Of a DNA stretch of 64,000 nt, positions 26,387 through 56,298 are shown piece by piece; positions within the stretch are counted from its first letter, which is position 1; each line of letters starts with the position of its first letter. Origin of the DNA: Meiothermus sp. (GTDB lineage Bacteria > Deinococcota > Deinococci > Deinococcales > Thermaceae); the NCBI RefSeq assembly GCF_037443965.1, contig NZ_JBBINI010000014.1, forward strand, positions 6,431 to 70,430. The letters are read 5' to 3'. A model generated the notes under the pieces. The model saw nothing but the letters and a program-made list of their open reading frames with translations. It did not search any database and had not been told where the DNA came from. Made by a program: the position numbers and the translations under genes.

Positions 26387-26403
26387 GTTACCAAACCATT
26401 ACC
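26387..26403 (-). promoter_or_regulatory. GGTAAY-N5-GGTAAY box 1
   Basis: GGTAAT GGTTT GGTAAC upstream of USP 26352; the first half overlaps the upstream Trp-stop codons. Confidence 0.6.
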
Positions 26404-27535
26404 AGCGGGGCAGCCCGCCCAGACCGCCAAAGGCCTTGAGCAGACGGGCCTCGGCAGGCCCCTGCACAAACTCGAGCCGGGTTCCATAGGCAGCGGCCAG
26501 CTCGGGAAGTACCTGCTTGAGGTCAATATCCTCGATGCGCCCGGCCCCGTGGGCCACCGCGCCCTCCATGCTGCCTCCCACCCAGCCATCCGGGGCGCGG
26601 TAGACCTTGTCCTCGGGGTTCCAGGGGGCCACCAGCAGATACAGGCGGCCCTGCTGCAAGAGCTCAAGGGTCTGATCCAGCCCGGCCACCCCCCGTTCGG
26701 CCAGCTCGTCCAGGAGCTTGTTTTCCCGTTCGCGCTCGAGGGGCTCCAGCACCTCCTGCACCCGCTTCAGCACCTCACCGGCCTGGGCGCTGGGGGTAGG
26801 CAGGGAGGGGAGGGTGGCAATGACCCGCTCACGCAGCCGGCGGGGAAGCAGTTCTTTGAATACCTGCACATCGGCTTTAGGGCCCATCAGCACCAGCCGT
26901 TGAACGTTGCGCTCGTTTAAGGTCTGCTCGAGCAGCCCGGCTAGGCGTTTGTAGAAGCGGTGGGTCCAGGCCTCGAGCCGGCGTTCGAAGCGGTCGGTGT
27001 TGGCGGCGGCCCGGTGGATGCCGCCCTGGCCGTAGCGCCGACCCTGGCTGTCTTCGGTGAGCTGCTTCCACTCTTGAGCCCCTACAGCCCTGAAGGCGCC
27101 CGGCAACTCCTCAATCTCGCCCAAGTACACCTCGAACATGCGCCACTTCTCGCTATCGAGGAAAATCACTCCAATCCGCTCGTACTCATCCAGTAGGTAC
27201 AGAATTGGGGTCAAGTAGGGCTCACCCCAACGGGCTTCTACCCCTTGCACCAACGGCAAATCCACCTGCAGGTCGTAGATTTCTATCCAGCCACTAGCAG
27301 CAAAGATAACCCGGCTGCGGGCTTGGGGTGCGTCGTGCTCGAGCGCCTCCAGCACCTTCTTACTTACCTCCGATGGAGTTCGTATAGCCTCGAGCACAGC
27401 CCTGGTTCTTAGCACATAGGCTTTACCCTGGTTGTCGGGGTTGGCCGGGTTCACGTCCAGATACAACGACAATACCGGAGCCACCCTCGGAGCCACAAAC
27501 TCGCGGATGTAGCGAGTACCTTCTTGGGTCAACAT
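26399..27535 (-). CDS. aeRF1-like (baeRF/VLRF1) protein, Balon/Rv2629-like, copy 1
   Basis: LSLYLDVNPANPDN, WGEPYLTP, RLVLMGP, L7Ae-like C-terminus; no GGQ. Confidence 0.75.
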   Translation of the reverse strand: MLTQEGTRYIREFVAPRVAPVLSLYLDVNPANPDNQGKAYVLRTRAVLEAIRTPSEVSKKVLEALEHDAPQARSRVIFAASGWIEIYDLQVDLPLVQGVEARWGEPYLTPILYLLDEYERIGVIFLDSEKWRMFEVYLGEIEELPGAFRAVGAQEWKQLTEDSQGRRYGQGGIHRAAANTDRFERRLEAWTHRFYKRLAGLLEQTLNERNVQRLVLMGPKADVQVFKELLPRRLRERVIATLPSLPTPSAQAGEVLKRVQEVLEPLERERENKLLDELAERGVAGLDQTLELLQQGRLYLLVAPWNPEDKVYRAPDGWVGGSMEGAVAHGAGRIEDIDLKQVLPELAAAYGTRLEFVQGPAEARLLKAFGGLGGLPRW

Positions 27536-27618
27536 GATAACCTCCTTGCTTTGTCGTAGTCGTTACCTATATCGAAGAGATACTTATACCCTCCCCAAGC
27601 TGATTGAACTCCAGACCA

Positions 27619-27635
27619 ATTACCCATCCATTACC
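27619..27635 (-). promoter_or_regulatory. GGTAAY-N5-GGTAAY box 2
   Basis: GGTAAT GGATG GGTAAT upstream of 27535. Confidence 0.7.
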
Positions 27636-27732
27636 GAACTAGGTTCGGCTTACGCTGTGGCTCGAGGTCGTATGCGTTGCCCACAACCGTCAAATTTGAA
27701 TGTTTCTAGCCTGCCCAACGTACCTTGATGCA

Positions 27733-28551
27733 TCAAGCCTGTGGGCTTTTAGCGCTTAGGCCACGCGCCTCGTGATAAGGGAGGATGGGACTGCCCTGTT
27801 TGATGTGTTCGGCCAGCTCGTGGGTTTCGGGCATGGGTGTGTCGCCTAATTCTTCGTGTAGAAATTTTACAAAGCGGCGATAATGCTCGATGGCTTTGTA
27901 GCGATCTCCTAAGGCAGCTAGGCACCACATCAGACGCTGGTGATAGTTCTCCCCAATATAGGGATCAGCTTTCAAGGCCCGCTCGAGATAATCGCTGGTG
28001 GCTCGCCAGTCTTCCTGGTCGTAATAAATCAGGGCAACCTCCAGCAGCGCTTGTACGTAGGCCGTTTTGTGCTCTTCGCGGGCTTGTGAAACCCAGTTGG
28101 TTGCGAAACCCGGCAGATAATCGCCCCGGTAGAGCGAGATGGCCTTGTTGTAGGCTTTCAGGCGGGCTGTTTCACAGGCGGTGTGGTGTCCTTCGCTGAG
28201 GGCCTGGTAGAAACCAAACAGATCGGTGCTCTGCAAAACGGCTTCAGCTAGGCGATAGCGCCCGTGCTCTTCCAGGATGGCCTCGGGGTTACCCAGCGCA
28301 GTACGAATGCGAAAAATGGTTACCCGAAAGCGGTTGTTGGCCACCGGGTCGGGGTCGAGGCCCCATAGGGTCTCGAGGATTTCCCCCTTGCTGCGGCCTT
28401 CGGGATAAGAGAGTAGATAGAAGAAGAGTTCCTCGGCGGTCTGGGCATGCCACTGCGCGGGATGCCCCGCCACCAGCACCTCCACCTGGCCCAGGGTGCG
28501 TACCCGGAGCGCAGGCACTGCCTGTTCTGAACGGGACTGCAACCTTTTCAT
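27733..28551 (-). CDS. SARP-family regulator (OmpR-type wHTH plus BTAD), no sensor domain
   Basis: LRVRTLG, LFFYLL, LETLW, RIRTALG, LYRGDYLPG, DPYIGE.YHQRLM. Confidence 0.88.
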   Translation of the reverse strand: MKRLQSRSEQAVPALRVRTLGQVEVLVAGHPAQWHAQTAEELFFYLLSYPEGRSKGEILETLWGLDPDPVANNRFRVTIFRIRTALGNPEAILEEHGRYRLAEAVLQSTDLFGFYQALSEGHHTACETARLKAYNKAISLYRGDYLPGFATNWVSQAREEHKTAYVQALLEVALIYYDQEDWRATSDYLERALKADPYIGENYHQRLMWCLAALGDRYKAIEHYRRFVKFLHEELGDTPMPETHELAEHIKQGSPILPYHEARGLSAKSPQA

Positions 28552-28562
28552 GGCTTAAGTCT

Positions 28563-28579
28563 GTTACAAATCCATTACC
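28563..28579 (-). promoter_or_regulatory. GGTAAY-N5-GGTAAY box 3 (autoregulatory position)
   Basis: GGTAAT GGATT TGTAAC, 11 nt before the SARP ATG. Confidence 0.6.
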
Positions 28580-28759
28580 GCTTCATCCGCCAAAGGGAGT
28601 AGAAGTGTCTGAGGCAATGTTTGGAAGGCTATCAAAAGAGGTGAAATTTTGTTCGTAAAAGGTTCGGATGGCAAGTGTCTCCTGCTGTGGGTTTGCCCCC
28701 TTGTGGTGTCCTTGAAGAGAAGGTTGCCATAACCCCCAACACCCAGCCCTGCAACCAGC

Positions 28760-28776
28760 GGTAACACCTTGGTAAT
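28760..28776 (+). promoter_or_regulatory. GGTAAY-N5-GGTAAY box 4
   Basis: GGTAAC ACCTT GGTAAT, 10 nt, CATTTT; upstream of USP 28829. Confidence 0.7.
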
Positions 28777-54920: not shown

Positions 54921-54971
54921 GACCCCCTCCAATCAACCCCACATTTCCCATATTCAAGCTAGGTTCCAAAG

Positions 54972-54988
54972 ATTACCAAGGCATTACC
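54972..54988 (-). promoter_or_regulatory. GGTAAY-N5-GGTAAY box 8
   Basis: GGTAAT GCCTT GGTAAT, 10 nt, TAGCTT; upstream of the VanW gene. Confidence 0.75.
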
Positions 54989-54999
54989 CACGACCAGGC

Positions 55000-55016
55000 G
55001 GTAATCGTCTGGTAAT
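55000..55016 (+). promoter_or_regulatory. GGTAAY-N5-GGTAAY box 9
   Basis: GGTAAT CGTCT GGTAAT, 10 nt, TAGGGT; upstream of the MalK-like gene. Confidence 0.75.
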
Positions 55017-55046
55017 GCCCAACGACTAGGGTGAAAGCTGAAAGGA

Positions 55047-56156
55047 ATGGGTATGGCCCAGATTGTGCTCGAGCACCTGACCAAGCGCTTTGGCAAAGTG
55101 CTGGCGGTCAAAGATTTTAGCCTGACCGTCCGAGATAGGGAGTTTATTGTGCTGGTAGGGCCTTCGGGCTGTGGCAAGACCACCGTGCTGCGCATGATTG
55201 CGGGCCTCGAGACGCCCACCGAAGGGCGGATCTACATTGGTGACCGACTGGTCAACGACGTGCCCCCCAAGGACCGCGATATCGCGATGGTTTTCCAGAA
55301 CTACGCGCTGTACCCGCACATGAGCGTCTATCACAACATGGCCTTTGGCCTCGAGCTGCGCCGCACCTCGCGGGCCGAGACCCGCGCACGGGTCGAGGAA
55401 GCGGCCCGGATTCTGCAAATTGAACACTTGCTGGAACGCAAGCCCCGCGAACTATCGGGCGGGCAGCGGCAGCGGGTGGCGTTGGGACGGGCCATCGTGC
55501 GCAAGCCGCGGGTTTTTCTGATGGACGAGCCGCTTTCCAACCTCGATGCCAAGCTGCGGGTGGAGATGCGGGCCTCGCTGGCCGAGCTGCACCAAGCGCT
55601 GGGGGTAACCACCCTCTACGTGACCCACGACCAGATCGAGGCCATGACCATGGGCCACCGCATCGTGGTGATGCGGGCTGGGGCCATCGAGCAGGTAGAT
55701 ACCCCCCTCGATCTCTACAGCAAGCCCGTAAGCAAGTTTGTGGGTGAGTTCATCGGCTCGCCTGCCATGAACTTTCTCAAAGGTACCGTGCGGCAGGGTT
55801 ATGTGGTGAGCCCCTACATGGACATCACCCTACGCAGCGAGCTTCTGGACGCACTGCGGGGGTATGAGGGTCGGGAGGTTTGGGTGGGGGTTCGTCCAGA
55901 GAATCTGGAGCTGGCCCAGCCTGGCTCGAGGGAAAACCTCCTACACATCACTGTCAAGCTGGTCGAACCCATCGGGGCCGAGACCATCCTCATCGGTACT
56001 GCCGGCGAGGCTGGAATTACCGCACGGGTCGAGGCCGAGGAAACCGCGGCGGTGGGCCAGACCGTTCAGCTTTGGGCGCGGCCCGACAAGGTGCACATTT
56101 TCGATCTCCAGACCGAGCGCAATGTGCTATATGCCAGCCAGCCCGTAGCTGCGTAG
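55047..56156 (+). CDS. MalK/MsmX-type sugar ABC ATP-binding protein (orphan)
   Basis: GPSGCGKTT, AMVFQNYALYPHM, LSGGQRQRVALGRA, YVTHDQ.EAMTM. Confidence 0.92.
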   Translation: MGMAQIVLEHLTKRFGKVLAVKDFSLTVRDREFIVLVGPSGCGKTTVLRMIAGLETPTEGRIYIGDRLVNDVPPKDRDIAMVFQNYALYPHMSVYHNMAFGLELRRTSRAETRARVEEAARILQIEHLLERKPRELSGGQRQRVALGRAIVRKPRVFLMDEPLSNLDAKLRVEMRASLAELHQALGVTTLYVTHDQIEAMTMGHRIVVMRAGAIEQVDTPLDLYSKPVSKFVGEFIGSPAMNFLKGTVRQGYVVSPYMDITLRSELLDALRGYEGREVWVGVRPENLELAQPGSRENLLHITVKLVEPIGAETILIGTAGEAGITARVEAEETAAVGQTVQLWARPDKVHIFDLQTERNVLYASQPVAA

Positions 56157-56190
56157 GGTAGGGAAACGGGTGGTGTGTCTTGGGTTCTAG

Positions 56191-56264
56191 CTCCCTTTGG
56201 TCGGCTCGAACCCTTCACCTTTGATCACACCCACAGGTGAAGGGTTCAAGCGGAATCGGTATTA
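56191..56264 (-). repeat. Half copy of the 42290 palindromic repeat
   Basis: Reverse complement matches the first ~75 nt of 42290-42429. Confidence 0.8.
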
Positions 56265-56281
56265 GCCCCTGCCGGATGCTG

Positions 56282-56298
56282 GGTAATGCCCTGGTAAT
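56282..56298 (+). promoter_or_regulatory. GGTAAY-N5-GGTAAY box 10
   Basis: GGTAAT GCCCT GGTAAT, 10 nt, TACGTT; upstream of USP 56403. Confidence 0.75.

Follow-up and report, generated by a model that had tools for sequence, protein, structure and literature searches.

SARPs have been studied almost only as antibiotic-production switches in actinomycetes, and some of their known target sites have repeats at 11- or 22-bp spacing. According to previous work on AfsR, the afs box consists of two 11-bp direct repeats at -40..-30 and -29..-19, which overlap the -35 region and are contacted over their first 8 bp, while 8 bp has been quoted for the distance from the 3' repeat of a SARP site to the -10 element (PMC10936776). 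Here we analysed a stretch of 64,000 nucleotides from a Meiothermus sp. (contig NZ_JBBINI010000014.1), hereafter called the window, in which ten boxes of the form GGTAAY-N5-GGTAAY precede genes for universal stress proteins (USPs), a Balon-type factor and others, and in which one gene encodes a small SARP of 272 aa. This adjacent small SARP probably controls the boxes, which would serve as the promoter elements of a regulon.

Compared with the SARP domain of AfsR at the afs box of S. coelicolor afsS (PDB 8k60, 8hvr), the window SARP has the same domain pair and the same target plan. However, it is only ~25% identical to AfsR, lacks the NOD, arm and TPR parts, is associated with a repeat that reads GGTAAYG, and belongs to the phylum Deinococcota; the AfsR target is a regulator of antibiotic synthesis, whereas the candidate targets in the window are stress and hibernation genes. 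ActII-ORF4, DnrI and RedD are likewise stand-alone SARPs of ~270 aa with 11-bp direct repeats, and in the window the gap counted from the conserved core is 9-10 nt. Those regulators lie inside one biosynthetic cluster and activate only it, whereas the window SARP stands among USP, Hsp20 and Balon genes, has at least nine dispersed candidate promoters in 30 kb, and is conserved in several genera; no biosynthetic gene cluster was found around it. PhoB also binds two 11-bp repeats, in tandem and head to tail through its winged helices, and these repeats replace the -35 element ~10 bp upstream of the -10. Unlike PhoB, the window SARP has no receiver domain, carries a BTA domain, and has no cognate kinase nearby.

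The 272-aa protein belongs to the small SARPs, judged by both profile and modelled fold. Within it, Pfam BTAD matches residues 110-250 (E=6e-18), and the family profile aligns with the SARP domain of AfsR over residues 7-245 (E=4e-11); Pfam Trans_reg_C gave no match below E<0.001. The AlphaFold2 model (predicted local distance difference test, pLDDT, 91) shows a beta-strand/helix/wing N-domain followed by a helical domain, and its best Foldseek matches are AfsR in the transcription initiation complex (8k60/8hvr, template modelling (TM) score 0.71-0.77) and EmbR (TM 0.73). The recognition-helix core NRFRV..xxRxR is invariant in an alignment of 18 sequences (A1) and is kept in nearly all of the 62+ loci described below, with single substitutions in two. 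V77 and R81, which align with the base-contacting T88 and R92 of AfsR, are invariant in the alignment and unchanged across the loci, in keeping with a GTAAY core that is likewise conserved from Meiothermus through Deinococcus.

No receiver, NOD, FHA or TPR sensor domain was found in the 272-aa protein, and there was no Response_reg match. The sequence-only reading, a first interpretation made from the DNA letters, had called this SARP sensor-less, which holds for the Meiothermus clade but not for the family: 65 of 107 homologs possess a conserved C-terminal three-cysteine tail (GE.IC-x10-20-CP(L/F)(T/S).DG.CP; A1 columns ~255-300, P0029-P0101), which is missing in the Meiothermus clade, including the window protein. 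This tail could be a metal, Fe-S or redox sensor, in which case most of the family would sense a signal by itself. Two entries with similar names were set aside, namely D. deserti 'SarP' (Deide_19260), a receiver plus BTAD protein of different architecture, and the 'SARP' domain of DR0724, whose name refers to an unrelated eukaryotic family.

All ten half-site pairs that had been listed 11 nt apart are real, and GGTAAY-N5-GGTAAY is exact in eight of them (boxes 1, 2, 4-6 and 8-10 in Table 1); each of the other two has one mismatch, a T for the first G of one half-site (GGTAAT-N5-TGTAAC at 28563 and TGTAAT-N5-GGTAAC at 45281, both on the minus strand). The exact motif was absent from 100 dinucleotide-preserving shuffles of the window (0 matches vs 8). 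A position weight matrix (PWM) was built from 110 distinct sites of the window and related loci; with it, the same ten window sites scored 23.4-31.7 bits, with box 5 (37411) as the top scorer at 31.7 bits, and the rest of the 64 kb, on both strands, stayed below 9 bits. The distribution is bimodal, with ten sites above 23 bits and none other above 9. Single GGTAAY hexamers occur 53 times in the window, 18 in boxes and 35 elsewhere, where composition predicts roughly 42 in total; since the leftover 35 are about at the composition level, the non-random signal is the 11-bp-spaced pair and not the hexamer. Four two-mismatch candidates (28277, 31689, 40464 and 50115) were rejected, as all score below 9 bits and ~6 are expected by chance; two lie within coding sequence, one over the end of the PolX gene and one over box 6. 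As proposed earlier, the boxes lie upstream of genes with GGTAAY on the gene strand: ten of ten are intergenic and oriented like the next gene.

According to the alignment of all sites, each box holds two direct copies of an 11-bp unit, yGGTAAYGnnn, in which 8 positions are conserved and 3 vary freely. The period is exactly 11 bp in all ten window sites and in ~130 sites of related loci. An A at +28 (90%) and a T at +32 (86%) from the box start are conserved in the 110 distinct sites, and they belong to an nAnnnT -10 hexamer, which is separated from the second GGTAAY by 10 nt, from the conserved 8-mer by 9 nt and from the 11-bp unit by 6 nt. These two positions played no role in picking the sites, so their conservation is independent evidence of the boxes as promoter elements. 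The seven NAnnnT hexamers that had been noted 10 nt downstream of window boxes were found as described (Table 1), and the remaining three boxes have TATAGA, TTCAAT and CATGAA. With the -10 placed at -12..-7, the repeats fall at -40..-30 and -29..-19, and a TTGACA-like -35 is not present at the boxes. The predicted transcription start is ~23 nt downstream of the box; in most cases a start codon with a Shine-Dalgarno sequence lies 33-90 nt behind the box, and the leader is often only ~12 nt.

A third upstream repeat was looked for at the window boxes and none was seen. Downstream of the SARP gene of a Deinococcus metagenome-assembled genome (MAG), three consecutive 11-bp repeats are present (CGTAATGCCCC CGTAATGCTCC CGTAATGCCCC; L060 10840-10872; L numbers denote compared loci). 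Back-to-back divergent pairs of boxes, 9-29 nt apart and each facing one of two divergent genes, are frequent (window 54972-55016; L011 14736/14771; L018 4831/4857; L066 7874/7911 and 10515/10561), and at this spacing two SARP dimers would sit close together in opposite orientations.

From these features, we infer SARP binding to the box, activation, and the positions of the transcription starts. The box would be the activator-binding half of a promoter without a -35 element. Two protomers of the 272-aa SARP would most likely bind the repeats side by side, at -40..-30 and -29..-19. Once bound, this dimer would bring in the sigma-A RNA polymerase holoenzyme as AfsR does at the afs box. At least nine transcription units would be activated in the Meiothermus genome; the set would include three tandem and two or more single USPs, Hsp20, the Balon-type factor and the a/b-hydrolase/LonC/PolX operon, as well as the phosphoribosyltransferase (PRTase), the VanW protein, the MalK-like ATPase and a membrane-anchored 391-aa protein.

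The protein database contains 107 SARP homologs, which carry the names of Meiothermus, Calidithermus and Deinococcus. In GTDB representative genomes, a scan gave 62 loci with an ortholog (36-94% protein identity), only in Meiothermus, Calidithermus and Deinococcales, and the best of them is a Meiothermus MAG with 94% identity; the locus counts given here refer to these 62 loci around SARP orthologs. In the zone up to 1.5 kb from the SARP gene there are 0.453 boxes per kb, against 0.043 farther out, a ~10-fold difference. Of the 62 loci, 48, from three or more genera, have a box in this zone, and 22 have a co-oriented box immediately 5' of the SARP gene. The boxes of related loci precede genes for single or tandem USPs, SARP, Balon/baeRF10, Hsp20, CBS proteins, PRTase, a/b hydrolase and DUF4383. 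In distant Deinococcus species the half-site varies at its first G (nGTAAYG), and a box typically stands before a CBS gene that lies next downstream of SARP. In D. roseus (SARP identity 51%), five boxes lie in 2.7 kb, before genes for USP, SARP, lactate dehydrogenase, a CBS protein and phosphoenolpyruvate carboxykinase (PEPCK).

No SARP ortholog was found in Thermus, Oceanithermus or Truepera in the scan of GTDB representatives. As a phyletic control, loci with Balon, Hsp20, CBS, VanW or PRTase genes were taken from one genome of each of these three genera (Thermus oshimai, Oceanithermus desulfurans and a Truepera MAG; 63.5 kb), and no box above 10 bits was found there; the box density of SARP loci would predict ~9. 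A metagenome-wide scan for the motif returned at least 120 loci, on mostly AT-rich contigs, human-gut and marine ones among them. Most of the listed contigs had no second site and no regulon-family gene, which is consistent with chance matches and makes them uninformative on regulon size. On one metagenome contig of 51% G+C (L135 6270-6310), a triple GGTAAT with an 11-bp period is intergenic and adjoins a divergent SARP-like sequence, which is 25% identical and apparently not an intact open reading frame (ORF); this hints that GGTAAT-type SARP boxes may exist beyond Deinococcota.

The promoter of the SARP gene itself has a different arrangement. Box 3 ends 11 nt upstream of the SARP ATG (28551), as stated in the sequence-only reading, and in front of this ATG the order is CAGACT, 6 nt, then ATG, which is a leaderless-mRNA-type arrangement. 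The leaderless -10 and ATG are kept in all Meiothermus orthologs, with nAnAnT 6 nt upstream (CAGAAT, CAAAAT, TACAAT, TAGACT). Relative to the leaderless start, box 3 lies at -28..-12, with half-site 1 at -28..-23 and half-site 2 at -17..-12 over the -10; half-site 1 occupies the slot of half-site 2 in other promoters, and half-site 2 (TGTAAC) is always imperfect. An alternative SARP start that would make box 3 activating was rejected, codon 4 being ATG, TTG or TGG among the orthologs. A box of standard activating geometry is present before the SARP gene in L014, L019, L027 and D. roseus. The presence of such a box in most lineages implies positive feedback, and positive autoregulation is likely for the SARP family outside the Meiothermus geometry. 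The Meiothermus box 3, one turn nearer to the leaderless -10 and ATG, lacks the activating geometry, so that the sign of autoregulation is ambiguous there. Adjoining box 3 upstream (28580-28605, minus strand), CTACTCCnTTTGGCGGATGAAGC is essentially invariant in the compared Meiothermus orthologs, including M. ruber. This element may be the site of a second regulator or a degenerate third repeat (GGCGGATG, -40..-33).

The core idea of the sequence-only reading, a regulon of the stand-alone SARP, is supported by the protein family and fold, the afs-box geometry, the clustering of boxes at orthologs and the absence of boxes in loci from one genome each of three genera in which the scan detected no ortholog, although several of its details needed correction. 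The assignment of the boxes to the SARP follows from co-localisation and is one of guilt by association, and several points weigh against it. Membership of the SARP gene in the core of a regulon under some other regulator would produce this co-localisation as well; the loci had been picked for containing the SARP gene, and the box counts come from these loci. The covariation between helix and half-site is weak and not phylogenetically independent (first base C goes with A72/A78 and G with the N72/T78 clade). M. ruber has lost the box before its SARP gene and keeps its USP and Hsp20 boxes, ~14 of 62 loci, mostly psychrophilic Deinococcus, have the same recognition helix and no nearby box, and the window SARP has no obvious signal-sensing part. 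The last three observations would also fit a rather unlikely alternative, in which the boxes are real activator promoters bound by another winged-helix protein, most likely an OmpR/PhoB response regulator encoded elsewhere, with a sensor kinase, and the SARP gene is merely a conserved member of the regulon. In Pho-box-type promoters, too, a pair of 11-bp direct repeats takes the place of the -35 at ~10 bp from the -10, and because PhoB/OmpR regulators share this box geometry, it is not enough to identify the binder. However, no response regulator or other transcription factor is conserved beside the boxes in the window or in annotated contexts, where MarR-like and CsoR-like genes are present but not conserved, and neither a NarL-type regulator nor an OmpR/PhoB response regulator is encoded in the 64-kb window. 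Control by the SARP is further favoured by the ~10-fold concentration of boxes at its gene in the 62 loci, by their absence at similar gene loci of genera in which no ortholog was found, and by the parallel conservation of recognition helix and half-sites.

The position of box 3 over the -10 of the leaderless SARP promoter in Meiothermus is typical of repression, and the SARP might bind the boxes mainly as a repressor or dual regulator, for example occluding promoters until a signal arrives. We consider this very improbable, since the other nine boxes and most sites of related loci lie in the -35/spacer region, with no recognisable -35 and in a register locked to the -10, whereas repressor sites need no fixed -10 register; this class of sites matches activating SARPs and PhoB. 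The copies are short, dispersed and near-identical, and some extracytoplasmic function (ECF) sigma factors have G/A/C-rich pentamers as -35 elements, so, rather than a transcription-factor site, the repeat might be the -35-type motif of an alternative (ECF) sigma factor, or else repetitive or mobile DNA in dispersed copies. We give hardly any credence to either possibility: the half-sites end 21 and 10 nt before the -10, whereas the spacer of the sigma-70 family is 16-18 nt, and a duplication at 11-bp period speaks for a dimer bound in tandem. Conservation does not extend to the flanks, every site is oriented like its gene, sites are kept at orthologous promoters between genera, and neither inverted repeats nor target-site duplications were seen at the boxes.

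Under the preferred reading, in which the small SARP activates transcription from the boxes, the candidate targets in the window are the genes collected in Table 1.

Table 1. The SARP gene, the ten boxes and the genes behind them in the 64-kb window
Feature	Position	Strand	Motif match	Hexamer at -10	Description or genes behind the box
Small SARP gene	27733..28551	-			272 aa, N-terminal OmpR-type winged-helix plus BTA domain
Box 1	26387..26403	-	exact		tandem USP 25405-26352 (Pfam Usp x2), ATG 34 nt past box, with Shine-Dalgarno
Box 2	27619..27635	-	exact	TTCAAT	baeRF family 10 gene 26399-27535
Box 3	28563..28579	-	one mismatch (GGTAATGGATT TGTAAC)		before SARP gene, displaced one helical turn (11 bp)
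Box 4	28760..28776	+	exact	CATTTT (28787-28792)	single-domain USP (Pfam Usp), ORF 28808-29266
Box 5	37411..37427	-	exact	CAGACT	a/b hydrolase 36656-37348, LonC-like protease ~34228-36672
Box 5 unit, further genes	33425-34240; 31701-33428	-			divergent USP-like (local blastp, E=5e-9); PolX (Pfam)
Box 6	40475..40491	-	exact	CATCCT	391-aa protein with hydrophobic N-terminus, 39254-40429
Box 7	45281..45297	-	one mismatch	AAGGTT	phosphoribosyltransferase 44446-45117 (Pfam Pribosyltran), true start ATG 45117
Box 8	54972..54988	-	exact	TAGCTT	VanW-domain gene 53853-54932 (Pfam VanW/G5)
Box 9	55000..55016	+	exact	TAGGGT	MalK-type ABC ATPase 55047-56156 (Pfam ABC_tran, OB_MalK, TOBE)
Box 10	56282..56298	+	exact	TACGTT	third tandem USP 56385-57311 (Pfam Usp x2, E=6e-60)

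The tandem USP gene behind box 1 is followed on the same strand by genes for Hsp20 (24846-25301) and a DUF4383 protein (24480-24836), identified by Pfam HSP20 and DUF4383 matches, which are probably co-transcribed with it. In M. cerbereus (L008) and M. ruber (L063), the counterpart of box 1 lies ~200 nt upstream of Hsp20, and no tandem USP was detected between them. Box 2 is kept before the orthologous baeRF gene in L002-L008 and in Calidithermus (L018). The USP gene behind box 4 has its probable start at a GTG near 28829, and most ortholog loci, from those of Meiothermus to those of Deinococcales, share this arrangement of a box and a USP gene that diverge from the SARP gene.

Lon and PolX had been proposed as targets, and box 5 does precede an a/b hydrolase/LonC-like/USP-like/PolX series; a box is also found before the orthologous a/b hydrolase gene in L008. 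Box 5 may drive in addition a tandem USP (30444-31433), a USP (29980-30429) and a CBS gene (29511-29975), but the membership of these three is uncertain because a 267-nt gap precedes the tandem USP. A ferredoxin target could not be substantiated, as no ferredoxin gene stands behind any box; the gene behind box 6 (40475) encodes the 391-aa protein, which has no Pfam or NCBIfam match, and is followed by a gene for a 94-aa membrane protein (38857-39141). The leader downstream of box 7 is ~140 nt long and holds a 37-codon upstream ORF (45118-45232, minus strand) with its own Shine-Dalgarno sequence; in L008 and L044 the PRTase start lies 36-41 nt past the box, and there is no upstream ORF.

Boxes 8 and 9 stand back to back, 11 nt apart, and a ZIP transporter gene (53044-53844, Pfam Zip) probably belongs to the box 8 unit. 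The surroundings of box 10 resemble a bordering copper-handling cluster: on the minus strand (57408-58563, 58786-59286), the gene of a CsoR-type metal-sensing repressor and the beginning of a membrane thioredoxin/redoxin gene overlap, with a PCu(A)C copper chaperone gene nearby. At the other end of the window, positions 3004-6200 (plus strand) have a G+C of 52-60% vs ~62% and contain four ORFs in a row (632, 149, 128 and 151 aa), none of which matches Pfam; this segment may be a horizontally acquired island.

The gene behind box 2, previously described as aeRF1-like, is more exactly a probable homolog of the Balon ribosome hibernation factor (baeRF family 10). It matches Pfam baeRF_family10 (E=5e-34), Balon MSMEG_1130 in PDB 8v9j over residues 58-378 (E=7e-6), and the NCBIfam MSMEG_1130 family RHF (ribosome hibernation factor) with E=4e-21 and 75.6 bits, far under the 480-bit equivalog cutoff. 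Members of baeRF family 10 are said to keep the catalytic Gln, so the product may be a release or rescue factor and not a pure hibernation factor. We also identified a second baeRF-family-10 paralog (51680-52843, plus strand), which is ~47% identical to the first and lacks a box in front; regulation presumably differs between the two copies. A Balon-Hsp20 gene neighbourhood has been reported in Deinococcus-Thermus, with no regulator described (PMC10901736). As in those loci, a putative Balon homolog stands beside Hsp20 in the window, and the window gene adds a SARP-type box. In Thermus oshimai (L068 3365-11614), the Balon homolog follows a cluster of dnaK-grpE-dnaJ, a MerR-family gene and clpB, and no box is present; in this locus and in Oceanithermus (L069 9533-12097), the order is a rubrerythrin-like small gene, the Balon homolog and then Hsp20. 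The Balon-Hsp20 placement in Thermus suggests that this genus, in which the scan detected no SARP ortholog, regulates the pair in another way.

The gene families behind the boxes overlap with those of the DosR/DevR regulon. DosR is a NarL-type response regulator, and the Dev box is palindromic. The DosR regulon of M. tuberculosis contains seven USPs, Rv0571c, annotated as a phosphoribosyl transferase, and Rv2629, a hypoxia-induced Balon homolog. The families shared with the window are USPs, an alpha-crystallin Hsp20, a CBS-pair protein, a PRTase and a Balon-type factor; a tandem USP of the window matches Rv2623 (E~4e-14), and its CBS-pair protein matches Rv2626c (E=4e-10). The proteins are family members, which makes this a case of analogy rather than orthology, and the regulator in the window would be a SARP acting at direct-repeat sites, a direct repeat being the sole motif detected in front of the window genes.

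Taken as a whole, USPs, Hsp20, a Balon-type factor, CBS and PRTase proteins, a protease and a repair polymerase, together with lactate dehydrogenase and PEPCK in D. roseus, make the gene set read as a growth-arrest/stress-survival, 'dormancy-like' programme. Whether the small SARP would be the master activator of a conserved hibernation or dormancy-like regulon of Deinococcota, a functional analogue of DosR that is positively autoregulated, we regard as evenly balanced. Were this so, the regulator in most of the family may sense its signal via the C..CP..DGxC tail, which was lost in the Meiothermus clade. In the literature on SARP/BTAD proteins in Deinococcus and on Meiothermus USP promoters, we found no description of the motif, the regulator or a SARP stress regulon. 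The mechanism class is known, while the phylum and the physiological role are new.

If the proposed regulon is real, the activation mechanism of SARPs would have been recruited in a distant phylum for a multi-promoter stress and hibernation programme. A DNA motif and a predicted regulon would then be available for an uncharacterised regulator of Meiothermus, Calidithermus and many Deinococcus, and this regulator would be, to our knowledge, the first transcriptional regulator proposed for a Balon-type factor gene in Deinococcus-Thermus. The programme would also be a second, independently evolved 'dormancy regulon' to set beside that of DosR.

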